IMG/VR virus record: IMGVR_UViG_3300020508_000002
Span: 1 to 43,355 of that record
DNA: 43,355 nucleotides
DNA from: a virus
Lineage: Duplodnaviria > Caudoviricetes
Reading direction: 5' to 3' (one strand)
Below, piece after piece: positions 1 through 43,355 of the stretch. The notes under the pieces are model-generated. The model worked only from the letters and a program-made list of their open reading frames with translations. It searched no databases and was not told the DNA's origin. The position numbers and the translations under genes are program-made. Every line of letters begins with the position of its first letter. The stretch's first letter is position 1.

Positions 1-99
1 GAATATTTAAGAAAATCTCTTGAAGAATTAAACAAAATTGAAAACCATTTTGCAGTTCATAAAACTGCCACCCAAATTACATGGACAAACGCACGTATT
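1..99 (+). repeat. Terminal overlap, identical to 43257-43355
   Basis: Exact 99-nt match gaatatttaag...gcacgtatt at both ends, inside an ORF, consistent with an assembler k-mer overlap. Confidence 0.95.
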
Positions 100-3000
100 C
101 CTGGCGTTAGGGTTATAAGAGATTCTCAAGGTGGCGCTCCGACTATTGAAATAACTTTACCAAGCGTTCCCAAAACTGGAGTTATTCCTTCACTTAAGTT
201 TTCTGTCGATGCCCCAGTTGAAACCGTTCTTCAATATCTTGACATTCTTGAAGATGCAATCAACAAAGATCGTGGTGCCCAGGAATTAAATTTCGGAGCA
301 GGAATGGAGAACAATATTGGCTGGTTGGTGAGAATTGAAGGTCTCACAAAAGCCAAGGCGTCTTTAAAAACAGCTGCATTAAAAGACATTGCTACGCTAC
401 GTAAAGCTATTCAAGACATACCCGAATGGTCTAGATCTACGGGGATTGAACTTGTTCGTCCCGACTCTTTAATTCCTGGTGTCAGGGACAACATTGTTCC
501 TATTGACAGAAACGCTAGTGACATTCAAGACCTGTTTTGGGACGAAGAGCAATGGCCGGGCAGGGAAGAAGCTTCTTCGGTTGCTTCAAACATTTTTGCA
601 GAGCTTGATGATTTTGACCCAACGGAAGGGCTCACCCAAGATCAAACAATCCTTAACAATATCCCGGTAGACGATCCCGTTCTTAGACAGCAGATCATCG
701 ATGTTCTTAAAGAAGCGATAGAAAACGAATTAAAAGGAAGCAAAAAATTTTCTCTTGCTTCTGACCTTAAATACGTAGTTGATGTTATTGAAGGCCGAGG
801 CGAAGTTAAGCGCCTTGCAAAAGTTGACGACGTTCTTGAACAAGCAAAGCCACCGACAGCCAAGAACACCCGGGCTGACTATGTAATTATCCCTTGCGGT
901 GCTGCCAAGGGTCCGGTTGCAACTACGGCTGCCGAAATGTACCAAGGCTCAATGTTTAAAGATGCACTGGCTACGGCTCGTGAAATGTTTGACGACGACC
1001 GCATTTACATCATCAGTGCTGAGTACGGCCTCCTTCGTCTTGATGACGTTATTGAACCATACGACAAAAAGCTTGGCGACCCTGGCTCCGTTGACAGTAC
1101 AACCATCTCTATGCAATTGCGCGACGAGGGACTTAAGAGGGGATCCAGTATTCTTTCCTTGCTCCCCAAGGAGTACCACAACTTATTGCAGCGTGGTGTA
1201 GAAGGACCAATAAAAGCCAACCCCAACAAACTTACCGTTGAACAATATTTTGCAGGGACAAGGGGAATTGGTGAACAAAAGGGCCGTCTGTCCAATCTTC
1301 GTAAAGAAACAGCTGCACAAAGAGCAGAAGCTGCTGCAGATGGTGCAGCCCTCATTGACCCCGAGCTTGAACAGCTTGCTAACAGCGTTGCCCAAGATCC
1401 TGCGTTGTACGCAAACTTTAGAGGCCAAGTTGAAGAACGTGCCATGTTGGAGCGTGACATTGAGTCAATGCGTAACCCAACACCCGAAGACATTGAGACA
1501 TACCGCAAAGACGCACAGGCCAAAGCACAGGAAGAAGTACGTACCTATGCTGGTGTCCTTGAAGGCATCGGCGGCAAGTGGGACCGTGCCAATGATTCCG
1601 TAACATTCTATGTCAATGTACGTTCCGGTACAGCCGAGTGGGAATGGTGGGACAAGCTTGACTCACGTGAACGCCGTCGTCTCGCCCGTACATATTTCCG
1701 TTCAACTACGGAACGCAGCACCGCAGCCAAGGGTCCAAAGCTTATCCGTGTTGCAGATAACATTGACCAGCTAGCCGACCCTTACGGTCTCACACCTGAC
1801 GAATGGGGCCAGCAGTTTCTTGAAACTGTACGTGAATACGAACGTGCCAAGAAGGCGCTAAAGGAAAGCAAGAGCAAGAACTTCGACCCTCTTGCCGCAA
1901 TCGACGAGAACCCTGAACTTCAGCAGGCACAGGATTACCTTGACCGCTTGATTAACGAAGAGGGTGTTGACAATGATCTTGTAACTGTTGTCAATCGTGC
2001 TCGGGAAATCCTTGGCGACAACGAAATCCCATCTTTGCGTGTCATTGCTGATAAGCCAACCGACGTAGTGCCGGAACGCAAGATCTCTGATCCGACCGTT
2101 CGTCGTGCCGCCTACGAAGCTGACGTCATTAACGCAATGGCCAAAGACGCAACAAAGAAGATGCGTGCTGCCCAGCGAGCAACTGAACGCCTGGCAGCCT
2201 TTGAAGAGTTTATTGTTCAGTCGGAAAAGTATCGTGGAGAAGCGGAAAGGCTGATCCAGCTTCAAAAGACCGGCACCAAGGCTCGTCTTGCTTTAGCAAA
2301 GAACGCTGCTACTCAATCTGCTTTGCGTGAAAAAATTAAAGATAAAAAGAAGAAGGCTCGTAAGCTCAAGATCATTGAGAACCGCCTGGAATCTTCTCAA
2401 ACTCTTGCCGACATTCAATCAATGGGTGGAGCTGCCCCGTTGCGAGTTGCAATGGAAGGTGGCTACCCGTCAGAACAGTTTGCTGTAGGCCTTCCCGACG
2501 GTGAAGATTTCCAGTTCCAGGGGCCAATGTATGTACCTACTGGTCGCCCTGCAGTCTTTACGGGCGGCTTGGCAATGGACCTCCAGCGAGCTGGTCTTTC
2601 CGGATTTGAAATCCTGACAAGCGAACACTATCGAGACGGTGATCGCCAAACAATCTTCTCTATTCGTGGCGTTGCTGCACGACTAGGTAAAGACGTGGGC
2701 CGCATGAGCTCCAACGAATCGTACCGTATGCTTGTTGCACAGTTTGGCAATACAGGTATTGAAGTACTTGGTGAGGATTTGTCACGTTCGCTTTACGAAA
2801 AGGCTTACCAAAAAGTCTCACGCATGAGTGAAGACGATCTCAATCAATCCGTAGTTCGTGTTGGTGCTGACATTGCAGAAGCTGAAGGCGGAACAGCAGC
2901 TTTTTCTTCCGGTGTGCCCAACCCAAAGGCCGCTTTCAACGCTGCGCTTAAAGAAGAATACGGTCGTCTTGTTGTTATTGAGATGGCGAACCGTGGATTT

Positions 3001-4524
3001 AAAGCTATTGATCCGTACAGCAAAATTACTTCACGTATGCCGATTGCTCGCGTTACTCATGAAACTATGTTTGTTCCTACAGGTTTCTCTGAAGCTATTG
3101 CAAAGGTTGAGGCTGTCATTGACCCAGCTTCATGGAACGGATTTCTTCGTGGTGCCCACAAGGTAACAAGCCAATTCAAAACATCAACCCTTGTGTTGTC
3201 TGTCGCCTGGCAGCTTGGCGACCTTTTCTCCAACATGATTATTGCTCAAATGAGCGGTGTCAATGTGGTGGACATGATTCGCCGCATGAAGGAAGTTAAG
3301 GCTGAAGAGTACGGCCCTGGTCTACGCACCCTTGTAGATGCAACTTCAGAATTGCCAACCCCTACCCCCAAGATTCGAATTGCTAAAGAATCACCAATTC
3401 AGGACATTAGCGCTTCTTTGGCTGACCGCCGGTACTTGTACAACATTCCGGAAGGAAACGCACTTCCTCCATTGCTGACTCGTTTGACAGGAAAGCAATA
3501 CCCGGAAGCCGTTCGTGGCCGAGGCGTAATCAACACTTCGTTCAAGATCAACGAAACAATCAACCGTATTCAGCGTCACGCCTATTTCCTTGAAGTTCTT
3601 GATACCAAATTAAAGGCTAAGGGTGTTGACCTTGACACCGTTGCTGCTGACGGTTCTTGGAAGAACGATCCGGAATTGCGTAAGATTGTTCTTGAAGCTG
3701 CAGACACTGCAAACGACTTCTTGGGTGACTTTGCTGACCTTTCGATGAGTGAACGAAAGTATGTGACCCCTTTTATTCCTTTCTACGCATGGACAAAGCA
3801 CATCCATAAAGTGTTCATGATGCTCGGTTCCGACAGCCCGCAGTCTCTTCGCTGGTACATTTACATGGGAACACTTGTTTACGATCCCGACGAAGACCCC
3901 ATGGGCTTGCGATACGGCAACCCAACATGGTTCGGCGGAGCATTCTCAACAAACATTCTTAACCCGTTTGGTGACGTTTTCGGTGGTCCAATTGGTTCAG
4001 TCCTTGCCGACGAGGATGTTAGGCCAGCGCTTAACACCCTTGGCCCCGTACCACGTATTGGTGCTGCGGTGCTGACTGGAAGAAATATTGCCAAAGGCTT
4101 CCAGCCGATTTCTAGGCCGTCGGGAAGTGGTGCGTACACACTCAGCGGATCAGAAATTTCACCGCCACTTCTTCCTTTTACTCGCCCACGTGAATTGCTT
4201 GGATTTACTGCACAGCAGTTCCCAATTGTTAGCCGCGCCATGAACGTTGCACCCGGATCACGCATTCCAGGTACTCGCATTGCCCTTGGTCCGGTTGCTC
4301 GTTACGACACTGGCGAAGTTCGTCTCAACCCACGCACTCGTCAACCCAATGTCAAGTACGGTGGCAGGTTGGCAGCTGTTGGACGCTTGTTCTCTCTTCC
4401 AGGTATTCCGTACCAGGCAGATAGTCAAATTGAAGATGTGATGCGTAGTGCTCGTGACCGTCTGCGTACTATTGAAACCCTCAAGCGCCGTAGGGCCATT
4501 GAGACTGGTGATACGGTGCCCTGA
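1..4524 (+). CDS. C-terminal part of giant (~2,613 aa) internal virion/ejection polyvalent protein with a DUF6884/YaaA-like domain
   Basis: Frame is open from base 1 into the 304..4524 ORF and in frame with the ORF starting at 39939; motif IIPCGAAK...MYQGSMF...IYIISAEYGLL...IEPYD...GIGEQ at ~877-1290; C-terminal FIPFYAW motif of the kind seen in large phage internal proteins. Confidence 0.8.
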   Translation, partial: EYLRKSLEELNKIENHFAVHKTATQITWTNARIPGVRVIRDSQGGAPTIEITLPSVPKTGVIPSLKFSVDAPVETVLQYLDILEDAINKDRGAQELNFGAGMENNIGWLVRIEGLTKAKASLKTAALKDIATLRKAIQDIPEWSRSTGIELVRPDSLIPGVRDNIVPIDRNASDIQDLFWDEEQWPGREEASSVASNIFAELDDFDPTEGLTQDQTILNNIPVDDPVLRQQIIDVLKEAIENELKGSKKFSLASDLKYVVDVIEGRGEVKRLAKVDDVLEQAKPPTAKNTRADYVIIPCGAAKGPVATTAAEMYQGSMFKDALATAREMFDDDRIYIISAEYGLLRLDDVIEPYDKKLGDPGSVDSTTISMQLRDEGLKRGSSILSLLPKEYHNLLQRGVEGPIKANPNKLTVEQYFAGTRGIGEQKGRLSNLRKETAAQRAEAAADGAALIDPELEQLANSVAQDPALYANFRGQVEERAMLERDIESMRNPTPEDIETYRKDAQAKAQEEVRTYAGVLEGIGGKWDRANDSVTFYVNVRSGTAEWEWWDKLDSRERRRLARTYFRSTTERSTAAKGPKLIRVADNIDQLADPYGLTPDEWGQQFLETVREYERAKKALKESKSKNFDPLAAIDENPELQQAQDYLDRLINEEGVDNDLVTVVNRAREILGDNEIPSLRVIADKPTDVVPERKISDPTVRRAAYEADVINAMAKDATKKMRAAQRATERLAAFEEFIVQSEKYRGEAERLIQLQKTGTKARLALAKNAATQSALREKIKDKKKKARKLKIIENRLESSQTLADIQSMGGAAPLRVAMEGGYPSEQFAVGLPDGEDFQFQGPMYVPTGRPAVFTGGLAMDLQRAGLSGFEILTSEHYRDGDRQTIFSIRGVAARLGKDVGRMSSNESYRMLVAQFGNTGIEVLGEDLSRSLYEKAYQKVSRMSEDDLNQSVVRVGADIAEAEGGTAAFSSGVPNPKAAFNAALKEEYGRLVVIEMANRGFKAIDPYSKITSRMPIARVTHETMFVPTGFSEAIAKVEAVIDPASWNGFLRGAHKVTSQFKTSTLVLSVAWQLGDLFSNMIIAQMSGVNVVDMIRRMKEVKAEEYGPGLRTLVDATSELPTPTPKIRIAKESPIQDISASLADRRYLYNIPEGNALPPLLTRLTGKQYPEAVRGRGVINTSFKINETINRIQRHAYFLEVLDTKLKAKGVDLDTVAADGSWKNDPELRKIVLEAADTANDFLGDFADLSMSERKYVTPFIPFYAWTKHIHKVFMMLGSDSPQSLRWYIYMGTLVYDPDEDPMGLRYGNPTWFGGAFSTNILNPFGDVFGGPIGSVLADEDVRPALNTLGPVPRIGAAVLTGRNIAKGFQPISRPSGSGAYTLSGSEISPPLLPFTRPRELLGFTAQQFPIVSRAMNVAPGSRIPGTRIALGPVARYDTGEVRLNPRTRQPNVKYGGRLAAVGRLFSLPGIPYQADSQIEDVMRSARDRLRTIETLKRRRAIETGDTVP

Positions 4525-11862: not shown

Positions 11863-11872
11863 AGGAAACACC

Positions 11873-12754: not shown

Positions 12755-12764
12755 ATAGCAAAGA

Positions 12765-12797
12765 AAAACCCCCAGGGAGAAATTCCCTGGGGGTTTT
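12765..12797. terminator. Bidirectional intrinsic terminator
   Basis: AAAACCCCCAGGGA-gaaat-TCCCTGGGGGTTTT perfect hairpin between convergent genes. Confidence 0.85.
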
Positions 12798-12846
12798 GCT
12801 GTTAGGAGCGATGTAAGTGTACACCTCCCAAAGAGTGAGCGTGGGG

Positions 12847-13116
12847 TCAGAAGGTTGATTTCTTGCGACCAAATACCGCAGTGCCGTGATCGGTGTTGCG
12901 AGCTACGAACTCATACTTCAATCCGTACTTCTTCTGTGCGTCGGAAGCACGTTGGTAACCGGATTGTTTTGTTTGATATGTGTAGAACAATGCCCACACT
13001 CCCTCGTTGGCGTCAAGGAACGCAACGAACTCGCTCATAAGTGGCATCCCTACTCGGTAGCCGTTGCGTGGTGGTGGTGGTGCTTGAAGTTCAAACTTCG
13101 GTGTTTCGTTTTCCAT
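12847..13116 (-). CDS. Hypothetical protein (89 aa)
   Basis: MENETPKFEL..., AGGA SD on the minus strand; ends at the terminator. Confidence 0.65.
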   Translation of the reverse strand: MENETPKFELQAPPPPRNGYRVGMPLMSEFVAFLDANEGVWALFYTYQTKQSGYQRASDAQKKYGLKYEFVARNTDHGTAVFGRKKSTF

Positions 13117-13208
13117 AATATTCCTAACTAGATGGTGCTCACCCACGAAAGAGAGTGAGAGAGTGAGCGAGAGAGATAGTACCCTAGCCCAGCAGTAGAA
13201 ACAACCTA

Positions 13209-13502
13209 TTAGACGGTGATCCAATAGTGACGTGAGCTCGACAGGATTGACAAGGTAAAACGAACGGCGGTGGTGACGGCAGGTGCGAACCCGACTATCT
13301 CGTTTTCTTGGCGACACTCAACTTCTTCGCCACGGGCGTTGCGATAGATACCTCTGACTGCGTACAGCCCTGCACCGACTTTGACCAGTCGCCACTCGCC
13401 ACTGTCTTTTATGATTTGGTTCACGCCAAGTGGAATCTTTGGCGGTGGGGCAACTTCGTTCAGTTGTTCTATTAAAAGTTCTAGGTCTGAAATACTTGAC
13501 AT
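13209..13502 (-). CDS. Hypothetical protein, probably leaderless mRNA
   Basis: MSSISDLELL...; ATG lies 7 nt downstream of a -10 box. Confidence 0.55.
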   Translation of the reverse strand: MSSISDLELLIEQLNEVAPPPKIPLGVNQIIKDSGEWRLVKVGAGLYAVRGIYRNARGEEVECRQENEIVGFAPAVTTAVRFTLSILSSSRHYWITV

Positions 13503-13524
13503 GGTTACGAGGATAGTCCATAAT
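13496..13524 (+). promoter_or_regulatory. Sigma70-type promoter of the early operon
   Basis: TTGACA-N17-CATAAT. Confidence 0.8.
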
Positions 13525-13538
13525 CTCTCCGTCGGCAA
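13510..13538 (-). promoter_or_regulatory. Overlapping divergent promoter
   Basis: TTGCCG-N17-TATCCT on the minus strand, 7 nt before ATG 13502. Confidence 0.55.
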
Positions 13539-13567
13539 TAACGCCGACAACGAAAGAGAGAAATAAA

Positions 13568-14338
13568 ATGACTACAACATCCTCACAATGCTGGAATGAC
13601 TTGAACCTTGCGCTGCAAGCTGGAACCGATCGTGTTCTGCTTTACGGACAGCCAGGAACAGGCAAGACCCATTTCGCATTAACAAAACACCTTGAATACT
13701 TTGACCGCACTCGCAAGTCGTACCGTGTTCTTTGCTCTCCTGACATGACCACCGCAGATGTGGACGGACTGTGGAAGCCAAGCAAGGACGAATGGAAGTT
13801 TGTGACAGGTTCAGCCCTTCGGGCATGGCAAGGTGGAGACCGCCTCATCCTTGACGAACTTGACCAAGCCTCGGGAGATGTGCTCACCGCTTTGTTGCTT
13901 ATCTGTGACAGTGACGGCTCGGCTGTTCGCGAACACCCTGAAACTGGTGAACGCCTTACACCTAAGGATGGCTTTGAAATTATTGCCACCACCAACGCCG
14001 AACGATTGACCGATTTGCCTGCCAACTTGGTGGACAGATTCCCTGTCCGTATCAACATCAACGAGGTGAACCCTGAAGCAGTTGCTTGCCTGCCGATTCA
14101 CTTGCAAGGCGTTGCTCGTGCTTATGCGAACAGAGAGCGTGACCGTTTTAGCCTTCGTTCCTTCTTTGCTTTTGACAAACTCTCTGGCCGGATAGATCGA
14201 CAAGCTGCTGTACGTCTTGTCTTCGGTGACGAGGCTCCTGCAATTTCTACGGCGATTGCCTTGTCGGAAAGCATGGGCAAGGAAAGCGTCTCTCAGGGCG
14301 CAGTGGAATTGACTGTTGGCATGAAGGTTGCGGACTGA
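13568..14338 (+). CDS. MoxR/CbbQ/CobS-like AAA+ ATPase
   Basis: Walker A GQPGTGKT, Walker B LILDELD, ATTN sensor, DRF arginine finger. Confidence 0.88.
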   Translation: MTTTSSQCWNDLNLALQAGTDRVLLYGQPGTGKTHFALTKHLEYFDRTRKSYRVLCSPDMTTADVDGLWKPSKDEWKFVTGSALRAWQGGDRLILDELDQASGDVLTALLLICDSDGSAVREHPETGERLTPKDGFEIIATTNAERLTDLPANLVDRFPVRININEVNPEAVACLPIHLQGVARAYANRERDRFSLRSFFAFDKLSGRIDRQAAVRLVFGDEAPAISTAIALSESMGKESVSQGAVELTVGMKVAD

Positions 14339-15825
14339 TGACCGACTACACGAAAAGAATTGCCTCGCCCGAATGGGTTGTAGCAGATAGGGCTGACATT
14401 GGGCTTGACCCGAGTTTGCAGGAGGGGTGGGTAGTTAATCCTGCCCCTCTTGCGAGGGGTCTCGCCTATACGGATTTCAGTTTGCACGAGATGGCACTGC
14501 CCGAAGGTGACAGTGACCAAGCCAAGGCAGTACGGGTGCATGAGATGGTTCATGCCCGTATTTCTCCGACCAGTGTTCCGCAGGCTCTCATTGACCAGTT
14601 GGGAGTGAGTGCTAACGCAATTCGCATAGCCGAAGAGATGAGAGTGAACCTTGTTGCCCGGCACGTTGCTGACCAGTTTGATAGCAAAGCTCGTATCCGT
14701 GTTGGGGATCTTGTTGGTGATGTTGTTCACTTGGCTGACGGTTCCGAGAAGGGGCTTGCAGATAGTTGTGTAGAACGGAACTCATGGAACGACGCTCTTA
14801 GTTTGTTTCTCGGTACTTACAACACCGAAGTTCACAAACTTGTTAAGCGTCGCTTGGTCAAGAATCCAATGTTCAAGGAAAACTTTGCACTCATTGAGAA
14901 GGAGATGGATTCGAATGGTTGGAAGTTTGACACTCGCAGATTTGTGCCAATTCCACGCAGGCGACTCACTAGCACTGACCCTCTAAAGTTCAGTTGGGTG
15001 GAGAAAAGTGAAGAACACTCTGTTCTCATTCCCGAAGGGTTTATGCTCCGCACCTTTCCATTGGCAAACAAAATTGAAGGATGGATGCAACAGCCACCTG
15101 CCGAATTGGAAAAGGAACTAAAGCGAACCAACGCAAGAAGAAGGCGAGACACTGGAAGCCAGTGGGAACACTTGCGTTTTGGCATGACCTCACTCACTGA
15201 AAACACTGGTTCGTTTATCGGAAAGAGAAAGAGACCAGCCATGACGGGCAAATACCCGTCACGCCCTGACCGTTTGCTTACTGACCCGGAACGCCGCATT
15301 TTTCGCGAGGTGGTTCGGGCTCGTGGTGGCGTTGTTGTCTTTGACTGCTCGGGTTCTATGGGCGTTTCTCATGAGACCGTTCGGGAAACTGTGAAGCAAT
15401 TCGCAGGAGCGTTAATCGTTGTGTACACCAACAGCACCAACAACGCAGGCGCACCTAATGCTTGGGTGGTCGCTAAGAACGGGAGAATGATTACAGAGTC
15501 AGACTTTAATGAGTTGCCACTGCACTGCGGTAACGGCGTAGATGGGCCGATACTTCGGTGGGCACTTCGGCAACGAAAGTCAAACAAGGATTTCATTCTT
15601 TGGGTGTCGGACGGACAAGTAACAGGCAAGAACGACGATATGCACGACGACCTCATCAGAGAGTGTGCGAACTTATCGGTTCGTAACAACATTGTCGGGG
15701 TGGACACTTGTGACCAGGCGATCGAGCTGCTTGCCACGATTAAGCGAACAGGGGCAGTGCCTAAAAACAAATACTGCCGACTGATAACAAACTGGGTGCG
15801 AGCCCTAGAAAAAGAAAAGGATTAA
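14338..15825 (+). CDS. vWA-domain protein with N-terminal HExxH motif (MoxR partner)
   Basis: VHEMVH zincin-like motif; MIDAS DCSGS...SDG; translationally coupled to the AAA gene. Confidence 0.8.
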   Translation: MTDYTKRIASPEWVVADRADIGLDPSLQEGWVVNPAPLARGLAYTDFSLHEMALPEGDSDQAKAVRVHEMVHARISPTSVPQALIDQLGVSANAIRIAEEMRVNLVARHVADQFDSKARIRVGDLVGDVVHLADGSEKGLADSCVERNSWNDALSLFLGTYNTEVHKLVKRRLVKNPMFKENFALIEKEMDSNGWKFDTRRFVPIPRRRLTSTDPLKFSWVEKSEEHSVLIPEGFMLRTFPLANKIEGWMQQPPAELEKELKRTNARRRRDTGSQWEHLRFGMTSLTENTGSFIGKRKRPAMTGKYPSRPDRLLTDPERRIFREVVRARGGVVVFDCSGSMGVSHETVRETVKQFAGALIVVYTNSTNNAGAPNAWVVAKNGRMITESDFNELPLHCGNGVDGPILRWALRQRKSNKDFILWVSDGQVTGKNDDMHDDLIRECANLSVRNNIVGVDTCDQAIELLATIKRTGAVPKNKYCRLITNWVRALEKEKD

Positions 15826-15827
15826 AA

Positions 15828-16604
15828 ATGGATATCAAAGAATTACGCCCACAAGAAGTGATGGACAACTGGCTTACCGCTTACGGCTACGACAAGAACC
15901 GCAGTACAAGCCCCGAGTCCCACTCATTGGGTTATGTCCTCACCATCAACGAGGGTGTGCCCAAGTGGCGCATGTTCGGTGCGGAAGAAGTTGGCGAGCA
16001 GGCTCTGATGGGCACTTTTCGCGAGTCTCTGGCATTGTTGTCTAATGACTACAAGGCAGGCAGGTTCGGAGAAGAAACAACCCGTATCGGTGCAGTGTTG
16101 CTCGTCTCTCATGGGACAGGTCATCACGCATACAAGAACCCCGAGACAGGGGAGAACTTGCGGTATGAAGAACTGACCGAAGGGCAGAAGGAAGAACTGG
16201 CAAAACAGTTTGAGGACGACGGAGTGAGAGAGGAATTAGAGGGCGAAGTGCCTTGTCGAATCGTTAATGTCATCACGCCTACCGGACTTGCAGCTGACGT
16301 TTCGATCGTTCACAAAACTGGGGTGGTGGTTCAACAGATTGAGCAGTATCTAAACGACGGCGAGGGGACTATTCCTCAACCTTGCGGTGCGGTGGATGAT
16401 GCTCTCATGAGTACCTTTATGTTTATGCAGGTAGCCCGTGAATGTGTGGCGAGTGGTGAAGAGATGTCTTTTGCAGGCATGTTGAAAACTGCCACCGAGT
16501 TGCACGACATGCAGGGTGGCAAGCAACTGATTGCTTTCCTACTTCGTATCTTGGCTGGTGGGCTAGAAGAAGGAATTATTTCGTTAGGTGAGGATGACGA
16601 CTAA
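15828..16604 (+). CDS. Hypothetical protein
   Basis: 258-aa acidic ORF with AAGGA SD. Confidence 0.75.
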   Translation: MDIKELRPQEVMDNWLTAYGYDKNRSTSPESHSLGYVLTINEGVPKWRMFGAEEVGEQALMGTFRESLALLSNDYKAGRFGEETTRIGAVLLVSHGTGHHAYKNPETGENLRYEELTEGQKEELAKQFEDDGVREELEGEVPCRIVNVITPTGLAADVSIVHKTGVVVQQIEQYLNDGEGTIPQPCGAVDDALMSTFMFMQVARECVASGEEMSFAGMLKTATELHDMQGGKQLIAFLLRILAGGLEEGIISLGEDDD

Positions 16605-16653
16605 GACCCGATAGCCTGCCCTGTGTCGGGGTTCCCCCTTTCCCCCGACTAGC

Positions 16654-16690
16654 AAGCCCCGATAGGTATCACGCACCTGTCGGGGCTTCT
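16654..16690 (+). terminator. Hairpin-family terminator
   Basis: AAGCCCCGATAGGT/ACCTGTCGGGGCTT stem. Confidence 0.65.
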
Positions 16691-16733
16691 GCTATTCTCG
16701 GGGTGTCTTACCAAACAGAAAGAGGGACAAGAA

Positions 16734-17060
16734 ATGGAAACCAGTTACTTTGCAGATATGGGCGTGTTGGGGCTTTGCCTCATGGCTTGTGTGTGGCTTG
16801 TTGTGTTTAATCAGAATGAGAAGAAGAAATACGAGGACGCCCGACACCGAGCCATTAGTTCAGCATTGAAGGACGGCGAGCGAGTGGTGTTGTCACTGAA
16901 TGTTGTGGGCAACTATCCGCACCGTGTTCTTGTTGATGGCCGGGTGTGGGGGTTTTCCGATATGGGCGATTTGTGGAACTTTCTCGTGACCGATTCAACG
17001 GGCGAGTGTGAGAGTGCGAGAGAGTGGGGCGGAGTGCTCCTCACTCATCCATCCATCTAG
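16734..17060 (+). CDS. Small membrane-anchored hypothetical protein
   Basis: GAAAGAGGG SD; hydrophobic N-terminal segment. Confidence 0.65.
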   Translation: METSYFADMGVLGLCLMACVWLVVFNQNEKKKYEDARHRAISSALKDGERVVLSLNVVGNYPHRVLVDGRVWGFSDMGDLWNFLVTDSTGECESAREWGGVLLTHPSI

Positions 17061-17112
17061 TCCGGCGCGGCCAGGAGATCAGCTCCTCGAAACGTCCACC
17101 CGATCACTTTGG

Positions 17113-17150
17113 AGAACCCTCGGCAGTGTTTGCACTGTCGGGGGTTCTTT
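17113..17150 (+). terminator. Hairpin-family terminator
   Basis: AGAACCCTCGGCAGTG/CACTGTCGGGGGTTCT followed by TT. Confidence 0.65.
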
Positions 17151-17200
17151 CGTGTATGCTCACCCGTGGCAATAGTGCCGACAGCCTGAAAGGGGCAACA

Positions 17201-17791
17201 ATGAGAACAGCAAGCCAACTATTAGAGGACATGGGTACAGCCGTCCCTATGCCTGAGGACACGGGGGCAGTAGCCCAACTGTGGGAACTGTGGGGCAGGG
17301 AATGGGTTGAGGGTCTCGTACCTAACGACAACGATATCTATATGACTATGAACCGCCACGGACAGAACCACCGCCGACTTCCCGACATTGTTAAGCCTGA
17401 CGCTATGGCGATTGTCTGCACTGGCTGGGGTGCTCCTATCAACCCCGAGACGGGGACGCTGGACGCTGACGCTCCGAGCCTGCACCCTGAACGCCGACGG
17501 GTCACACTCTTCACCGTGGTTACTCCTCGGGCTGATGTTGCGTCCCGTTTGGTGATGGGTGACGACGAGCCGACAGATGACCCCGAAGGCGGTGGCGTTG
17601 GTGCATTGGCTGACGCTTTGGACGCTTGCGCTGTTGCGGTGTGGGGTAGTGAGTTCACCTCGTCGCTGGTCATGCAGTACGCCACGGGCAAGGCTGACGG
17701 TGCAGACGAGGCAACGCTTGACCGACTCATAGAACGGGTGGCGAATATTGCCCCGACTGTCCGTGAAGCATTAGAGGGAGAGGGCGAGTGA
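17201..17791 (+). CDS. Hypothetical protein
   Basis: GAAAGGGG SD before ATG 17201 (MRTASQLL...). Confidence 0.7.
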   Translation: MRTASQLLEDMGTAVPMPEDTGAVAQLWELWGREWVEGLVPNDNDIYMTMNRHGQNHRRLPDIVKPDAMAIVCTGWGAPINPETGTLDADAPSLHPERRRVTLFTVVTPRADVASRLVMGDDEPTDDPEGGGVGALADALDACAVAVWGSEFTSSLVMQYATGKADGADEATLDRLIERVANIAPTVREALEGEGE

Positions 17792-18069
17792 TGGGGCGAG
17801 ATATGGCGAGAAATGTTGAAGGCATGGCCGGTACGTCTGCCCTGGCAGCTCGATATGGTGTCACGCCCCCAACGCTCAACAACTGGGAGACCCGTTATCC
17901 GAACTACCCGACCCCTGCCGTTCTTATTCCTTCTAAGCGTTCCGCAATTCGCCTGTGGGATATTGAAGAAATGGACAACTGGGTGAACTGGTACCGAGTT
18001 GTCCAAATCGCAAAATTGCCAACCGTTCCAACAACAGCAACAACAACAGAAAGAGAGGTCTTGCAGTGA
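17788..18069 (+). CDS. AlpA/MerR-type helix-turn-helix DNA-binding protein
   Basis: GTSALAARYGVTPPTLNNW...YPTP...RLWDIEEMDNW pattern. Confidence 0.75.
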   Translation: MMGRDMARNVEGMAGTSALAARYGVTPPTLNNWETRYPNYPTPAVLIPSKRSAIRLWDIEEMDNWVNWYRVVQIAKLPTVPTTATTTEREVLQ

Positions 18070-18386
18070 GTGAGACAACTACCGCCCGCACTGTTTGGGA
18101 ATATGTCGAGGAGACACCGGAGCACCTGGCCGCTTTGGGTCATCTCTGGTCTTGGTCTCTCAATCACGAACCCCACAACGCACCTTTCCCCTTGTTCCTT
18201 GACCTTGTGGACTACTCACAAGAACACTTTGGGAGCAAGTGCAGTGTGTGGGGTGTGACTGACTGCGCTGGCTATGGCTCAACCATTGAGATGGGCTACC
18301 TCGTGGATGCTCTCGCCCTGTTCGTTGAGCGTCCGAGAGAGTGCGAGGAATGGCTTGATGGTCTCTTCACCTTTGAGGACGCCTAG
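18066..18386 (+). CDS. Hypothetical protein
   Basis: GTG start, GAAAGAGAGG SD, GTGA overlap. Confidence 0.7.
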   Translation: MSETTTARTVWEYVEETPEHLAALGHLWSWSLNHEPHNAPFPLFLDLVDYSQEHFGSKCSVWGVTDCAGYGSTIEMGYLVDALALFVERPRECEEWLDGLFTFEDA

Positions 18387-18440
18387 CAACGTCTCCGGCA
18401 GCTCGAAGGTGATCACCTTCGCGAACTGACCCCAACAACT

Positions 18441-18480
18441 GAACCCCGACAGGTCGCCCCCCGACTTGTCGGGGTTCTTT
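18441..18480 (+). terminator. Hairpin-family terminator
   Basis: GAACCCCGACAGGTCG/CGACTTGTCGGGGTTC followed by TTT. Confidence 0.7.
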
Positions 18481-18550
18481 CATGTCTGCTGTCTGTCGGG
18501 TAGTCTCTTCGTGTCGGGCTCGGTGCTCGGCAGTTCTGAAAGGGGACGAA

Positions 18551-18964
18551 ATGAAATACAAGACAACGCTTTACACGGGGGACGGTTTACGCCTTCTTCG
18601 TGTCGCTACCTTTGCCACCTCTGCCGAGGCTGTTGAGTGGGGGCTTGCTTGTGAAGCAATACCTCACTCTGCCGACTTCGGTGATGGCGTCCTGCAGTAT
18701 GTCGTTACTCGTTTTGAGGTTCGCCAGTGGTGCGACAGTTCCGAGGGCTGGTTTCCGTTGGGTGACTGCCCCTGCATGGACTGGCAACTAGATACGGTTG
18801 GCAACTGGGGCAAGGTTGGCGAATGTGCCGACACTGGCGACGGCTGGGCGTCTCGGGCGTTCGCTGGTGCTCTCGGTGATGACAGCACCGCTCCTGCCTG
18901 CTGGAAGTGTGGAGCGTCTGAGCGCATTGGTGACTATTGCAAGGCATGTCTCACCAATCAGTGA
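18551..18964 (+). CDS. Hypothetical protein with C-terminal CxxC...CxxC zinc ribbon
   Basis: GAAAGGGG SD; CWKC...CKAC. Confidence 0.65.
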   Translation: MKYKTTLYTGDGLRLLRVATFATSAEAVEWGLACEAIPHSADFGDGVLQYVVTRFEVRQWCDSSEGWFPLGDCPCMDWQLDTVGNWGKVGECADTGDGWASRAFAGALGDDSTAPACWKCGASERIGDYCKACLTNQ

Positions 18965-18991
18965 CCAACTAGCAACCGACTAGCAACCTAG

Positions 18992-19022
18992 GGAGCCCCT
19001 GCCGATTGGTGGGGGCTTCTTG
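18992..19022 (+). terminator. Hairpin-family terminator closing the early region
   Basis: GGAGCCCCTGCC/GGTGGGGGCTTC followed by TT. Confidence 0.6.
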
Positions 19023-19166
19023 CTGTCTCGGGTGGCATTGAGTGGCGAGCGTGTCGGGCAGTGTCGCCCACAGTGAGAGCGTGAGAGATGCGCCCACTGG
19101 CTCACCCTCACTTCATCACTCACCCTGGCCGCGTCTCAGCTGCTCGACGTGCCGGAATGGCAGACA

Positions 19167-19259
19167 GGGCAGGACGTCACCCCACCGACAGGGCAGGACG
19201 TGGGGAGAGGGAGAGGGCAGGACGTGCCACGACGTAGGGCAGGACGTGGGGCAGGACGT
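19167..19259 (+). repeat. Five direct copies of GGGCAGGACGT (iteron/pac-like)
   Basis: Copies start at 19167, 19191, 19215, 19237 and 19249. Confidence 0.9.
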
Positions 19260-19639
19260 CACCACCTGGCCATCGTTCCGGACTCCATCCCTCCCCACTG
19301 CCCAAGCCCCCAACGTCCCCCCGCTCATCGATCCACACCAACCACCACCCCCCCCACCGCAGAGGGGACCCCAAGCGCGTAATTGATAGCACGTTCCCGT
19401 ACGTTTGACTAAAATTTTTCGGGGTTGCGGAGAGACTGCAGCGTGTCCTAGCGGTGAATTCCTCCTTCTTAGGCCTGATTTGCTCCCGAATGGGGTGAAA
19501 ATGCAGTAAATCTGTACCCGGAGTTAAAAATCTTCCACATTTGTTTCAAAAAGACCCACCTAACAGGTGGAATCCACCAGTGCCAGCTTCTTTCAGGAGC
19601 AATTGTTGACTATCTTGCTGTGTTGACCGAACTAACAGG

Positions 19640-38700: not shown

Positions 38701-39939
38701 ATGCTTGGCACAAAGACTGATCTTTTTAATGCAGCTAGCGGCAAAATGCCTAAACGTGTATTCACCAATACCGATTTCGGTGGCACTGGTACGACTACAA
38801 CAACTACGCCGCAGCAGGGTACATATGCAGAAGCTTTGAGCCGCAAGGGTTTGCTAGCTCAAACCTTTCCTAGCCTTGCTGCCGAAAACGCTACCTATAA
38901 GACACAAACGGGCCAACTTTACGGACCATACGCAACGGCCGTTGGTGCTCCAGCAACGAAAACCTTTGCTGACGTTTTGGCCCGCACCGGTAGAACATCA
39001 AGCGGTAGCGGTAAGTACGGGGGATTTAGGAATGCTGGAGACTTGACTACAGCTATTGGCGGAGCGGCTATGAACGTTCGTGACGTTACTGTTCCACAAC
39101 TTAGGGCTGCCGCTAGTGACTACTACACCAAGCTAGACAAGGGTTACCGCGGTGCCCTAGGGCCGTTGACTGGCTTTACTAGCGAGTACAATCCAAACGT
39201 TGTTAGCCCCGGCAACTTCCGCATTGCTGACCAGCTGTCAATGCCTCAGTATGCTAACCAGCGTGCTGCTATTAAGTCATTTACCCCAACCCTGGGATCT
39301 TGGTATACAGAACAAGCTAAGCCAGCTGAGGAATATCTACAGACTGCTCAGCAGCTTGAGATGACTCCGCTGTCTCAACTTGCTACTTCTATCGCAACCA
39401 GGGGATACGGCATGGATGCCAACCTTGCTGCCGGTAAGTTTGCAGGACTTGACTCAGAATACTTTAAGCGCAATCGCGATGCTGAATACATGGGCCAGTA
39501 TGGCGTTCCGTACGACGAGTACACAGCTCTTCAGAAAGAAAAAGAAGACGCTCTCAATACCGCAAAAGACCAGGACGAAGCAGATGCTTTGTCTAACATT
39601 GAATCAATTACCGGATTCTCTTATGGAGCCTTGTCGCCAATTGCTGGTCAAACTAAGATTCAGATGTACAACACACTTGCAGGCAATTATTCATACAAGG
39701 ACCTTAACAACGACAGCGTGTTGACAAGTTCAAATGGGGCTGGCGTTGTTGCTGCCTATAAAGATTTTATAGCTAACGCCAAAACTGATGAAGCCCAAAA
39801 ACTTATTGATTCGATTGATACAACTCCTGGAGCAGAGTCTTTGGCACTTCTTCTTAAAGCCCTTCAAAACCGTCTTGTAACAATTCCTTCCAAGGCTAGC
39901 GAGAATGCTATTATTTGGGGAACTCCAATAGATCAGTAA
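38701..39939 (+). CDS. Putative internal virion (ejection) protein
   Basis: 412 aa, A/G/T/Q-rich, directly upstream of the giant gene. Confidence 0.65.
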   Translation: MLGTKTDLFNAASGKMPKRVFTNTDFGGTGTTTTTTPQQGTYAEALSRKGLLAQTFPSLAAENATYKTQTGQLYGPYATAVGAPATKTFADVLARTGRTSSGSGKYGGFRNAGDLTTAIGGAAMNVRDVTVPQLRAAASDYYTKLDKGYRGALGPLTGFTSEYNPNVVSPGNFRIADQLSMPQYANQRAAIKSFTPTLGSWYTEQAKPAEEYLQTAQQLEMTPLSQLATSIATRGYGMDANLAAGKFAGLDSEYFKRNRDAEYMGQYGVPYDEYTALQKEKEDALNTAKDQDEADALSNIESITGFSYGALSPIAGQTKIQMYNTLAGNYSYKDLNNDSVLTSSNGAGVVAAYKDFIANAKTDEAQKLIDSIDTTPGAESLALLLKALQNRLVTIPSKASENAIIWGTPIDQ

Positions 39940-42900
39940 TGGTTATCCCAGCACAACCTCGCAAACTTCAACCGATAGCTACTAAGCCAAGGCTCCCGCC
40001 TATTCCTATCCCAAGACCTACGCCTAGCACCGGTGGTGGTGGAGGAGATGATGATGGCAATAGTTGGTTTGACAATTTTGCAGACGACGTTACAAATGTT
40101 GAGCTTAAATTATGGAACGGTCTTCCCTACATCGGAAGAAAATCACCAGCTAGCTCATCTTCATTAAGTCCCGTTGCAGGAAAATCTAGATTCCAAACAG
40201 AAACTCGTGAAGTTGCAAACGTTGTACGCAACGTTCCATCCGGCGCTATTCGTTTTTTTGGCGGCCTCGGGATTGATCTTGTAAAGCAATCTACGCCATT
40301 TATTTGGCAAGACGAAAGACCATACAGCGATCCAAACTCAACAACACGTCAATTTGCAACTAGCGTCGGTAATACTCTTCAGTTTTGGAATCGTGTTCCC
40401 GACTACGCAGAGCAATGGCAAGCTGGAGGACCTATCTCCGGAATGCTTATTGAAGACCTTGGAAACATTTCATTTATAGGCCGCGGTGCCGCAAGAGGCG
40501 CATCTTCAATTTCAAAAGCTACCGGCGCTTCTGCTGCCGAATCTGCTGCTGCCGCTTCTGTCGCTTCCCGTTCAGCCGCTGCTTCGGCTACAAGAGGGGC
40601 GATGGCAGATGCTGCTGCCGCTGCAGAAAGGGCTGCTTTATATACTGCAAAATCTGAACGCATGGCAAAGATTTCCGGATGGGCTGATCGTACTGCTTCC
40701 CGTACGGGCCATGCTATTGACTACGTAGACAAAGCAGCCAACTTTCCTTTTAAGCCTTACGTATGGGCAGGCAAAGGTCTTGGCCGCGCTTATCGAGAAG
40801 GTTTGTATGTAGAACAACTTTCTACCGGTTGGGGCGCACGCGCAGCCAAATCCTACATTCAGCAAATTGATGATCTTCGTAAAGCCAATCCGGAGATGCC
40901 GGACAACCATCCTGACCTTCAATTGCTTCGTAAAAAAGCGGCAAGAAACATTGCCATATCCCTAACCCATGCTACAAAAGCAAAAATCCGTCAAGCGGTA
41001 CGCAACTCGGAGTTTGAAGCAGAGCTAGTAAAACAAACACTTCTCAACATTCAGAAAAACCCCGAGTTTAAAGATGTTGTCAATCCCGCCACCGGCGAAG
41101 CCTGGGGTGAACTTAGTCAAATAGAAAACGAAGCAATCATTGCTGTTATCAACGGCCGTGCTGCTCTTGTAAAATACCTTGTTGAAAACCTTAACAAGAC
41201 ACCTGAAGAAATTGCCGAGCTTGGCCGCTATGACGCCACTCCGGAATACCACCTTTCGGGATCAGGCGCTCGTTTATCAATTGACTTTGTAAACGGAAAT
41301 CTTTCTCCCGAACAGTACCAACGCTTGTCTTCTGCTGTTGAAGGCTTGATGAAAGCTCTTGTTGAAGTTGCACAAAAATCAGTAGATGGCGTTGGCCGTC
41401 GCAGTGCTCTTTCTACTGACTACTTAATTCCTCTGCCTTTTGTCAATCGTCTTAAAATCGCTGTTGCAAAATCAAAGAACAAAGCCCTCATTGACCTATT
41501 TGCAGAAGCAGAAGAAAACGGAATCTTTGAACTTCCGGCTAACGACCCAGTACGCCAACAGTTTCTTATGGCGATTGTTGAAGCGTTGCCTGATGAACTT
41601 GCTCTTGACCCTTCCATGTACCCAGCGTCAATGCGAGAAAACATTGAGTTCTATCGTCGCGTTCGCCGTTCCTTTAACCAGGAGGCAACTGGCGCAGCAT
41701 TGGGTGAACCTCTTCCGCCACGAGATGGTCGTCCTCGCGCACCCAAAGGTCCATGGGATCCATTTAAAGATTCTGACCCGGATGCAGAAGTTACAGACCG
41801 TCCTGAGCAATTTGACATGCCCCCATCACGGGGCCGCCTTAATGCTGCGGAAAACCTGTTAGGCAAAACAAAAGAAAAGCTCAAGAAGCTCGGTGATGAA
41901 ATTCTCAAAATCACCGACAAAATTGCATTGCTTGAAGAAAAGCATGTAAAGCTACAGCAACAAGTTCGCAAGTACGACGTTGTTGACGCACACCTTGCTG
42001 GCATGAACGAAAAAGCAATTGCTAGAAAATACCGTATTCCGGTTTCTGAGGTTCGGGAAATCATTGCTAAGAGCCCTGTAGTAAAGCAGGCGGCTAAGCT
42101 TGCCGAAACCACCGCAAGGCTTGAAGAACTTCAGAAGGTAATTGGTAAAAAAAGGGCTTCTCTCCCCGAAAACGCAGTGGACGCAGAGCTTGCCGTATTG
42201 CAGCAAGAACTTGCTAACGCCCAAGCAGCGGCTGCGTCTGCTCGTCAGGCTGTTGACGCAGCAAGGAACATTAACGAGATTGCTCGCCAGGCCGACGAGT
42301 CAGCAATCAGCAATCTTACCGATGCAATCGTTCTTGCAGATGACGAACTGTATGACGGTGAGATGGCTTTCGAACGGGCAGGCGGAGATCTCGACACGCT
42401 TAAGGTTGAAGTTGATCCTAAGGAAGTATTCCCAGTTACTCCGGAACGTGGTGACGCATACATAGAACAGCTCAAGGCTGTAGCCCAACAGGCGCTTGAA
42501 GGATTGGAAGGCAGCAGCTTGCAGGCTGTTATTCCTAACTTTGTCACCGCAATTGAATCTGCCTGGAACGACGCTAACGAATTTATGGAGAATGCTCAGA
42601 CGCCTGCAGAGTTGCGGGTTGCTGATCTCCGCATGGAGCAGCTTGGTGACGTTATCAACGACGTTACCCAGGAGCTAAACAAAGCCTTCTACGAAACACC
42701 TGAAGGCATGACAATGGAACAGGCTGTTGGTGAGGCCATCGTCAAAGTTCTTGGAGATGAAACAAACCAGCGGGTTATTGCTGGCACTGCACCACTGACG
42801 AAGGGCGGAGTCGTACGAGGTGGCGAACCACGCACAACCATCTTTAACAAGTTAAACACCAAGCGCAATGATGCTGGAGCGCTGGATCTTGGTTTGATAA

Positions 42901-43355
42901 ATGACTGGAGTAATCCAAACATTATCATTATGAAAAAAGGTGCTGCAATTGATGAATTGATTCAATCAATAATTGACGACACTGCGGATACTTCTGTATT
43001 TCCACAAAGGGAAGTTTCATCTAAGGTTGGCACTGTCCATCAGCTTGCTACGGCGGCAAATATTATTGCTCGTTACGTTAAAGAAGTACGTGCTGCCACA
43101 ACAAAAGAAGCAAAGATACAGTTAATTCTCAATCCTCCCGATTACGTCCCAGCAGAATTGTATGCAGAGATGACTCGCGGTATGAGTCGTGACACTATTC
43201 CAGCTGACGAAAATGGTCCAACCCATCCTCTCCGTAAGTTCTCTAAAAAATCTTACGAATATTTAAGAAAATCTCTTGAAGAATTAAACAAAATTGAAAA
43301 CCATTTTGCAGTTCATAAAACTGCCACCCAAATTACATGGACAAACGCACGTATT
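39939..43355 (+). CDS. N-terminal part of giant internal virion protein (continues at base 100 through 4524)
   Basis: TAATG start (MVIPAQPRKLQP...); no in-frame stop to the window end; codon phase at 43257 equals phase at base 1. Confidence 0.88.
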   Translation, partial: MVIPAQPRKLQPIATKPRLPPIPIPRPTPSTGGGGGDDDGNSWFDNFADDVTNVELKLWNGLPYIGRKSPASSSSLSPVAGKSRFQTETREVANVVRNVPSGAIRFFGGLGIDLVKQSTPFIWQDERPYSDPNSTTRQFATSVGNTLQFWNRVPDYAEQWQAGGPISGMLIEDLGNISFIGRGAARGASSISKATGASAAESAAAASVASRSAAASATRGAMADAAAAAERAALYTAKSERMAKISGWADRTASRTGHAIDYVDKAANFPFKPYVWAGKGLGRAYREGLYVEQLSTGWGARAAKSYIQQIDDLRKANPEMPDNHPDLQLLRKKAARNIAISLTHATKAKIRQAVRNSEFEAELVKQTLLNIQKNPEFKDVVNPATGEAWGELSQIENEAIIAVINGRAALVKYLVENLNKTPEEIAELGRYDATPEYHLSGSGARLSIDFVNGNLSPEQYQRLSSAVEGLMKALVEVAQKSVDGVGRRSALSTDYLIPLPFVNRLKIAVAKSKNKALIDLFAEAEENGIFELPANDPVRQQFLMAIVEALPDELALDPSMYPASMRENIEFYRRVRRSFNQEATGAALGEPLPPRDGRPRAPKGPWDPFKDSDPDAEVTDRPEQFDMPPSRGRLNAAENLLGKTKEKLKKLGDEILKITDKIALLEEKHVKLQQQVRKYDVVDAHLAGMNEKAIARKYRIPVSEVREIIAKSPVVKQAAKLAETTARLEELQKVIGKKRASLPENAVDAELAVLQQELANAQAAAASARQAVDAARNINEIARQADESAISNLTDAIVLADDELYDGEMAFERAGGDLDTLKVEVDPKEVFPVTPERGDAYIEQLKAVAQQALEGLEGSSLQAVIPNFVTAIESAWNDANEFMENAQTPAELRVADLRMEQLGDVINDVTQELNKAFYETPEGMTMEQAVGEAIVKVLGDETNQRVIAGTAPLTKGGVVRGGEPRTTIFNKLNTKRNDAGALDLGLINDWSNPNIIIMKKGAAIDELIQSIIDDTADTSVFPQREVSSKVGTVHQLATAANIIARYVKEVRAATTKEAKIQLILNPPDYVPAELYAEMTRGMSRDTIPADENGPTHPLRKFSKKSYEYLRKSLEELNKIENHFAVHKTATQITWTNARI
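43257..43355 (+). repeat. Terminal overlap, identical to 1-99
   Basis: Exact match to the window start. Confidence 0.95.

Follow-up and report, generated by a model that had tools for sequence, protein, structure and literature searches.

Phages are known to lose restriction sites, to modify their bases or to make inhibitor proteins, and restriction sites are lacking from the first segment of phage T5. Here we describe a virus genome in which selection keeps and rebuilds such sites, one of each kind, at a measured distance from a signal, the 5-base word GAGWG. The genome is the IMG/VR record IMGVR_UViG_3300020508_000002 (Duplodnaviria; Caudoviricetes), a complete virus record of 43,355 bp with direct terminal repeats; the whole stretch is referred to as the window and is labelled G000 among the genomes compared. 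A literature search, which left subscription papers mostly outside, found no description of motif-coupled or of clustered, retained sites.

Among the closest described systems, the injection stop signal of T5 occupies a single region of the long terminal repeat, in which long repeats, palindromes and DnaA boxes are found (10.1101/866236, in part). The window shares with T5 first-step transfer a bounded early block that is thought to enter first, depleted of sites and with sharp edges, as well as cis-acting DNA signals tied to entry. Unlike T5, it has about 14 small elements in which sites are retained at a set distance from a 5-base word, and its contig depth is not doubled. T7 Ocr, ArdA and T4 IPI are protein inhibitors of restriction enzymes (PMC5512222, in part). 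Like them, the proposed elements would occupy host enzymes before the bulk of the genome enters; the inhibitors are, however, proteins directed against particular enzyme types, whereas the proposed decoy is real DNA with at least eight Type II-style words. P1 DarA/DarB and the polyvalent proteins offer a further likeness, namely a very large virion protein that is presumed to be injected and a cis-acting counter to restriction, which is proposed for the window; the accessible part of PMC5512222 describes no bait DNA element for either group. The giant protein of the window, scanned in two parts, gave no Pfam, NCBIfam or PHROG match to a DarB-type adenine methylase with SWI2/SNF2 helicase. The element belongs to none of these three kinds, as the signal of T5 forms a single repeat region, Ocr is a protein and no DarB domains were found.

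Two other systems bear on the comparison. Chi, the signal of RecBCD/AddAB, is a short, G-rich, oriented word whose tandem copies act more strongly (10.1101/2020.08.13.249359, in part). GAGWG is likewise short, G-rich, oriented and stronger in tandem. We know of no Chi that is paired with restriction sites at ruler distance. Genome entry of T7 is started at a fixed end by the podovirus-type internal proteins of the gp15/gp16 ejectosome (PMC13128918, in part). The window presumably shares internal proteins of this type, and its giant protein showed no sequence match to the solved ejectosome proteins. In T7, transcription pulls the DNA into the cell; the early genes of the window, in contrast, are oriented toward the end that is presumed to enter, and transcription could therefore not draw its DNA in.

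Judging from its genes, which encode WhiB, SSB, terminase, a portal that matches podovirus-type families, capsid, tail fibres, RusA and RecT, the window is probably a podovirus of actinobacteria. It is held by 23 DNA runs, all but one of them from freshwater or lake metagenomes; no RNA run is listed among the runs that hold it, and no cultured relative was found in the phage collection. The early region starts after RecT (end at 12754) and runs to approximately 19,350. Its genes form small cassettes that lie mostly on the plus strand; two genes at the left edge are on the minus strand. Eight restriction-type words were scored: GATC, AGCT, GGCC, CCGG, TCGA, ACGT, CCWGG and GCWGC. Their joint density is 1.24 per 100 bp in the early region versus 2.84 elsewhere. 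Between 12790 and 19350 the words are cleared, except in short stretches downstream of GAGWG, hereafter site windows, while late DNA avoids the eight words little or not at all.

The original prediction, for which the motif had been picked by eye, held that an alternating-G motif lies 51-60 bp upstream of nearly every palindrome cluster. All 12 motif/cluster pairs that it listed were found at their positions. An unbiased ranking of 5-mers by the sites 48-95 bp downstream placed GAGAG, AGAGA and GAGTG on top, and a scan of words against lags revealed a peak in the motif-palindrome distance, with GAGAG at +45 reaching a z of 11.4 against a null maximum of 6.4 in 30 shifts. The unbiased ranking and the shift nulls rule out an artefact of selection by eye. 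Thirteen runs of GAG[ACT]G[ACT]G take in 61 of the 85 sites at +45 to +100, whereas random placement of 13 runs takes in 9.2 sites on average and 45 at most in 100,000 draws. Between 12,791 and 19,160, the windows lying 45-87 bp behind plus-strand GAGWG contain 65 of 72 sites in 12.6% of the DNA. The corresponding control windows contain 7 of 72 sites in 15.3% of the DNA for minus-strand GAGWG, and 26 of 1,035 sites in 2.8% of the DNA for GAGWG of the late genome. With a slightly wider motif, all 14 of 14 runs are followed by at least two site types (background 0.12).

These analyses also sharpened the description of the element. The active word is GAGWG and not alternating G as such: an isolated GAGAG predicts 1.05 site types downstream, GAGTG 0.84 and GAGCG 0.33 (background 0.16), whereas GTGAG, GTGTG and GAGGG remain at background. 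The offset of 51-60 bp holds as the distance to the first site, while the site centres peak 60-65 bp after GAG in the window. The claim that the motif precedes nearly every cluster is borne out by the 12 pairs and by further elements at 13556, 14640 and 18053-18072, but a small cluster at 15285-15304 has no upstream GAGWG. Conversely, lone GAGTG words at 16451 and 18635 are not followed by a cluster, and seven sites lie outside the site windows. The strand is the same whatever the orientation of the gene, as two elements overlie minus-strand genes, one of which has 64 homologues while the other is kept in 9 of 9 relatives. The spacing of the elements is even (mean 455 bp, largest gap 772 bp, P ~0.001, with some positions picked by eye). 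A ribosome-binding site or promoter was rejected, given that a start codon is found within 20 bp of only 3 of the 16 runs and that two runs overlie minus-strand genes; a scan for sigma-70 promoters returned 4 sites versus 3.9 by chance. No structured RNA was matched by Rfam in the window. The proposal of a bipartite, oriented DNA element overlaid on genes thus stands: the element occurs only in the purged early region and recurs in relatives. We conclude that the motif-coupled clusters represent a real DNA element that is repeated and actively maintained, and we regard its anatomy as firmly established.

All elements are on the plus strand. The first two overlie the minus-strand genes: element 1 (12833..12904) combines a GAGTG run at 12833 with GATC at 12888 and AGCT at 12901, and element 2 (13151..13241) has a 25-nt run with seven GAGWG followed by GATC, ACGT, AGCT and TCGA at 13218-13241. 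The run at 13151 is one of the two longest and lies at the inner edge of the early region. Element 3 (13556..13631; GAGAG at 13556, then GCWGC, AGCT and GATC at 13612-13631) is new relative to the original prediction. Within the AAA gene, element 4 (14133..14215) has GAGAG at 14133 and seven site types at 14186-14215. Elements 5a and 5b (14603..14710) have runs at 14603 and 14640 with CCGG, ACGT, AGCT and GATC at 14658-14710, and element 6 (15659..15730) has GAGAGTG at 15659 with CCWGG, GATC, TCGA, AGCT and GCWGC at 15714-15730. They are followed by element 7 (16222..16307; run 16222-16232, six site types at 16282-16307), element 8 (16878..16943; GAGTG at 16882, GGCC and CCGG at 16938-16943), element 9 (17004..17105; run 17004-17036, seven site types at 17062-17105), which in the close strain G001 differs in spelling with much the same content, and element 10 (17774..17853; run 17778-17790, seven site types at 17826-17853). 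Element 11 (18053..18131; GAGAG at 18053, GAGTG at 18068, then TCGA, CCGG, CCWGG and GGCC at 18106-18131) is likewise an addition. Element 12 (18335..18414) has a run at 18335-18343 and six site types at 18389-18414. Element 13 (19040..19155) comprises GAGTG at 19040, a run at 19075-19087 and seven site types at 19124-19155, spelled in three ways in three strains. Element 14 (19205..19281) has a run at 19205-19215 with ACGT, CCWGG, GGCC and CCGG at 19256-19281 and sits among five GGGCAGGACGT repeats (19167-19259). The copy number of GGGCAGGACGT differs between strains, and the repeat resembles GGGNAGGG, which we take to be an FtsK-orienting word.

The site windows are enriched in sites and not merely spared from the purge. 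Against synonymous-codon shuffling, coding windows hold 36 sites versus 16.5 ± 3.2 expected, whereas coding DNA outside the windows holds 15 versus 102.7 expected. Non-coding windows contain 21 sites in 167 bp, and the other non-coding early DNA contains none in 668 bp. The shuffling and the non-coding windows together rule out protein-coding constraint as the cause. Stretches of 40 bp with at least six of the eight types occur six times in 6,565 early bp versus once in 36,690 late bp. Furthermore, each type tends to be present only once: in 13 clusters with 66 sites a single type is repeated, while the null mean is 17.0 and none of 20,000 draws was as low. In four genomes, clusters of four to five sites contain a repeated type in 0 of 11 early cases versus 34 of 53 late ones. 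The six-type stretches and the missing repeats rule out, as a full account, chance clusters that were later joined by motifs.

The content of the clusters is kept while their spelling changes. The word order within clusters varies, and at 17004 and 19075 the clusters of close strains are respelled or reordered with much the same content; among the aligned positions, 5 of 231 differ between these strains in the motif bases and 525 of 8,944 in other DNA. More copies of the motif go along with more site types (Spearman 0.64, 146 runs), namely 0.86 types for one copy, 2.27 for two, 3.62 for three and 4.33 for four or more. Each word is present in approximately 11 copies across the early region. 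The most strictly purged word, GGNCC, occurs once inside the windows versus 7.0 expected (P 0.007, one of 12 words tested); this deficit is weak, as GANTC and GCGC are also low and the null is inflated by the windows' own make-up.

We compared ten early regions by circular shifts. Coupling is strong in G001 (z 8.7), G000 (8.0), G004 (7.5), G010 (6.3) and G005 (5.6) and weaker in G006 (3.9), G003 (3.1), G007 (2.8), G002 (1.9) and G008 (1.8). The predicted conservation therefore holds for some relatives, including ones whose early proteins are about 50% identical, but in others coupling is weak or absent. As G001 is near-identical to G000 and G010 is close to G005, the strong genomes represent about three independent lineages, to which the fragments L062, L064, L081 and L090 are added. 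In these lineages the elements arose at different codons of shared genes. The VWA-like proteins of G004, G005 and G010 are 50-54% identical to that of the window; the AAA gene has its element at codon 189 in the window versus codons 84 and 223 in G005, and the VWA gene at codon 89 in the window versus 57, 137 and 288 in G005/G010, codon 441 being common. The ruler shifts as well. The offset peaks at 60-65 bp in G000, G004, L062 and L064 and at 70 bp in G005, G010, L081 and L090, where it is only 15-20 bp wide. In G010, GAG[ACT]G is found at 70 ± 5 bp for 73% of the sites and at 50 ± 5 bp for 5% (background 8%). Such a tight, lineage-specific offset would suit a rigid phage structure better than a host stop word.

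GAGWG itself is plus-strand-rich in the early regions of 8 of 10 genomes (4.0-7.5 per kb), G006 and G007 having 2.5-2.6 per kb. In the weakly coupled G002, G003 and G008 its early density is 4.0-4.4 per kb versus 0.5-0.8 late. It is not plus-strand-rich in the unpurged G009 or in eight sister-family loci (0.6-2.4 per kb). Since the word is plus-strand-rich early even in weakly coupled members, it seems to be older than the full polylinker array. The scan of words against lags yielded no alternative word or lag beating the null in G002, G003, G006, G007 and G008, and the best word of G004 was also below its null maximum. Eight loci with 70-78% terminase identity showed no coupling on the minus strand, and the purged regions of the sister family have zero to one cluster each. 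A pattern scan of 18 of the 64 parts of the viral collection gave 119 loci, of which 79 were testable and none reached z 4 (best 3.0); the 5th to 95th percentiles of these unrelated viral loci span approximately -1.6 to 1.9. In place of GAGWG elements, tandem CTACCG repeats lie at or close to the left boundary of the purged block in the sister family, and single copies occur elsewhere (L021 1197-1214, L022 7259-7270, L025 5555-5578, L030 6265-6294, L031 2716-2733 and L035 6528-6545).

The right edge of the purge coincides with a boundary element on the plus strand (19346..19428), which consists of a C-run, GGGG.CCCC, CCCGTACGTTTG at 19396 and a T-run. It is present in 20 of 27 clade records and loci screened, the other seven being records or a rotated copy without the intact stretch. 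The element lies 3.1-3.7 kb before terL; 10 of 33 terminase contigs begin 2.9-3.9 kb upstream of terL, and the G004 record ends 86 bp beyond the element. It is likely the genome end or packaging site, and an assembly break at repeats fits these observations too. About 250 bp after it, a second conserved non-coding block ends in TTTTAGCCGACACC and is common to the sister family; neither the boundary element nor the following block has an Rfam match. DNA that is packaged last leaves the capsid first. If packaging proceeds from the boundary rightward, the early region would be packed last and leave first, each cluster ahead of its motif, and it probably enters the cell before any other DNA. Over 6-26 kb, the contig depth stays level in the two runs X1 and X2 (in X2, 26.1 over 11608-18140 versus 27.3 and 26.5 on the flanks), and depth cannot settle a terminal repeat. 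Because it shows no doubling, a cut in the early region would probably lose unique genes.

Any mechanism must cover why sites are selected for and present as one copy per type, and why the elements keep a ruler distance, are evenly spaced and occur in the early block only. We consider it probable that evolved polylinkers tile the first-entering DNA as universal baits for restriction-modification enzymes, set 60-70 bp from a word that is read by the phage's own injected protein, and that they catch, disable or commandeer nucleases or methyltransferases. More tentatively, and with less confidence than in this broad statement, we favour elements that act as baits for restriction enzymes of the host, each occupied by one enzyme at a time and kept at the ruler distance by an injected protein, which is probably the giant protein. 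With the genome end near 19,400 entering first, each cluster would enter just ahead of its motif. A rigid, phage-coded reader, most likely the giant internal protein, would sit on GAGWG, and the site window would hold one enzyme at a time without being cut, so that a second copy of a word would be a risk without gain, while one of each word would make the bait work in any host strain. Until early products act, the approximately 11 copies per word would absorb or disable the limited number of enzyme molecules in a small lake bacterium, and this would precede the entry of the remaining 37 kb with about 1,000 sites. Given the footprints of such enzymes, a window of 15-40 bp fits about one enzyme at a time. 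We favour baits because one-enzyme windows would explain the one-of-each rule and because some 11 copies of every word could make a difference to a small cell that has methylated its own sites.

If the bait model is true, the phage would practise a counter-defence that uses restriction sites rather than avoiding them, and a single protein, together with a single DNA element, would act against many Type II enzymes simultaneously, which could aid DNA delivery into bacteria that are hard to transform. With the exception of a passive shield, every reading implies that a phage uses the restriction-modification enzymes of its host in an undescribed way. The element also provides a sequence handle on DNA entry of actinobacterial podoviruses whose early genes face the entering end. 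It is small and defined, with a 5-base word, a spacer and a window of 25-40 bp, and its targets are those of commercial enzymes; an in vitro test without phage culture is therefore possible.

The candidate reader of GAGWG is encoded on the plus strand by a gene that crosses the origin of the record (39915..43355 and 1..4524), follows the tail module and forms one open reading frame of 2,654 aa after rotation. From this gene order, the giant protein is presumed to be an internal virion (ejection) protein. It carries a DUF6884/YaaA-like insert and a mobile EWxWW domain (window 1465-1929). Its middle is variable between relatives and its EWxWW positions are shifted, which agrees with the large, multi-domain architecture with shuffled domains of polyvalent-type proteins (Iyer et al. 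2017). The fold of one domain is matched by a 'large polyvalent protein associated domain-containing protein' (E 9e-9); Pfam detected DUF6884 and no LPD family. A helix-turn-helix (HTH) match at aa 680-719 was below the cut-off (E 0.0013). The original prediction had linked the element to this giant protein or to early HTH proteins. As for the former, a tree of giant proteins made by a quick method groups the strongly coupled G000, G001 and G004 with support 100, in a comparison of seven genomes, whereas G002 groups with G000 and G001 in the WhiB tree and the VWA tree is unresolved. In agreement, G001 and G002 are 97-100% identical in tail(-fibre) genes and 85-100% in most core genes but only 25-40% in the internal-protein module, and they differ in coupling (z 8.7 versus 1.9). 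The link to HTH proteins found no support: nothing here ties the motif to them, and the HTH gene at 17788 is unmatched in 9 of 9 relatives, strongly coupled ones included.

The EWxWW domain was found in 13 of 13 cases in proteins of 1,486-3,029 aa, and its matches are confined to giant phage proteins. In its confident model (pLDDT 87.9), an antiparallel coiled coil carries a small head; neither the sequence nor the fold matched a PDB entry, and no usable Atlas match was obtained. A codon-pattern scan for the domain gave 11 loci and no new record with both the domain and an early region. The domain is present in G000, G001, G004 and G006 and absent in G002, G003, G008 and G009. In the DUF6884/YaaA-like insert (window 862-1320), the stretch is gapped or unlike in G002-G008. 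The most conserved early protein (91 aa; 12847-13122, minus strand; 63-97% identity in 64 homologues) was rejected as a reader, as it gave only a weak R3H-like match (best Z 6.7, root-mean-square deviation 3.0, 62 aligned) and nothing by Foldseek.

Several observations weigh against the bait reading. No precedent for the mechanism was found, and the giant protein contains no nuclease-blocking, methylase or clear DNA-binding domain that we could find. The EWxWW domain is not a required reader, since G002 and G003 lack it yet have some elements (in G002, at least two site types follow 8 of 15 runs, the background being 0.16, and a terminal element with six types is found in G003). G006, conversely, has the domain but weak coupling (z 3.9; clustering z 2.3). 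The protein link is drawn from seven giant proteins and two independent strong lineages, the G005 and G010 records having no giant gene. In four genomes, clusters of at least six sites repeat a type in 3 of 10 early cases (late, 5 of 5). The genome end and the direction of entry are ones that we infer, and the data are fitted about as well by methyltransferase capture.

According to this alternative, which takes up the pause for host methylation suggested by the original prediction and which we hold to be rather doubtful, entry or packaging would pause at GAGWG, and the polylinker at the channel mouth would recruit a host methyltransferase that marks the early DNA every ~450 bp or, in a variant, stays at the channel to methylate the rest on entry. 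It agrees equally well with the one-of-each rule, the ruler, the even spacing and the dose effect, and 60-70 bp would correspond to ~20-24 nm, a plausible channel length. The eight words are barely avoided in late DNA, which therefore needs strong protection, and gene scans of the window found no phage methyltransferase. An unmethylated site window would, however, attract the cognate nuclease too, so that protection would be needed anyway. GGNCC, purged and rare in the windows, yet has hundreds of late copies, so another protection must exist. A pause word is also expected to be rare in late genes, but GAGWG is not significantly depleted there by synonymous shuffling (21 versus 22.8 in the window, z -0.4; z 0.0 to -2.6 in eight genomes), which leaves clearance of the motif from late genes unsupported. 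Finally, we know of no defence that counts marks per kilobase.

The resemblance of GAGWG to Chi suggests a host stop word, although we judge this improbable. GAGWG would halt a helicase-nuclease of the AdnAB, AddAB or RecBCD type, and the polylinker would supply programmed breakpoints; resection from a cut would halt after ~60 bp and leave a recombinogenic end for RecA or the phage RecT, and a RecT-like gene indeed adjoins the early region. Under the geometry of Chi, the orientation would match an enzyme that reaches the word from its 3' side, provided that the right end enters first, the strand bias being observed and the direction of entry deduced. The plus-strand richness of GAGWG in the early regions of the weakly coupled G002, G003 and G008 is in line with this idea. 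So is the faster divergence of the windows than of their flanks (71 of 678 versus 386 of 7,740 coding positions, in two non-independent strains). Chi, however, acts over a wide range of distances, unlike the window of only ~15-20 bp in G005/G010 and its shifts between lineages. Moreover, having no site would be safer than being cut, no second copy of the early region is apparent from contig depth, and the sister family has the same layout with only 0.6-2.4 GAGWG per kb. No Chi is named for AdnAB in the accessible part of PMC13000450.

Very unlikely, in our estimation, is a restriction sensor, in which an occupied or cut bait would hold the ejection motor or alter early expression until the host enzymes are neutralised, like a distributed T5 injection stop. 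One site of each type suits the detection of any enzyme, and the long run at 13151 is well placed at the inner edge of the early region; a cut would, however, lose unique genes unless repaired, and GAGWG is not cleared from late genes.

The passive shield suggested by the original prediction, here read as a protein on GAGWG that covers the downstream window so that sites are merely tolerated, with motifs that arose beside chance clusters, is largely refuted as a full account and has at best a slim chance: it explains the ruler and the weak coupling in G002, G003, G006 and G007, it may be the ancestral state, and P1 DarA/DarB protect injected DNA in cis (PMC5512222, in part), but it leaves unexplained the 2-fold (coding) to 4-fold (non-coding) enrichment over neutral density, clusters richer than late chance ones, the rarity of repeats and the respelling with content kept.

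Four of the elements are carried by two neighbouring early genes on the plus strand (13568..15825), which occur also in relatives without clusters. The first (13568-14338) encodes an AAA ATPase (Pfam AAA_5). Its partner (14338-15825) has no Pfam or NCBIfam match; by eye, its alignment shows an invariant HExxH, a downstream EExRxN and a VWA-like DxSGSM motif, and its product is likely a metallopeptidase-VWA protein. The two may possibly form a remodelling or protease pair.

Other words also distinguish the early regions. GTCGG and CCGAC are strongly enriched on both strands; TGTCGGG occurs 19 times on the plus and 10 times on the minus strand of the early regions of four genomes and never late, and a perfect inverted GTCGG/CCGAC pair lies at 13531-13548. 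These words are likely parts of promoters, operators or terminators. The set of purged words varies by lineage: in G002, ACGT is absent and TCGA unpurged; AGCT is unpurged in G005/G006, and GATC, CCGG and TCGA are unpurged in G008. In late DNA, CCAGA and TCTGG are the two most avoided 5-mers of the window, G002, G003 and G006 (z ~ -6), an avoidance absent in G004, G005, G007 and G008; they likely represent a host site that the former four cannot neutralise. In L102 (3696-8047), from a clade with 70% terminase identity, the early genes point away from a similar end element, the DNA is GCGCG-rich, and a likely C5 methyltransferase gene was seen by eye near the early region.

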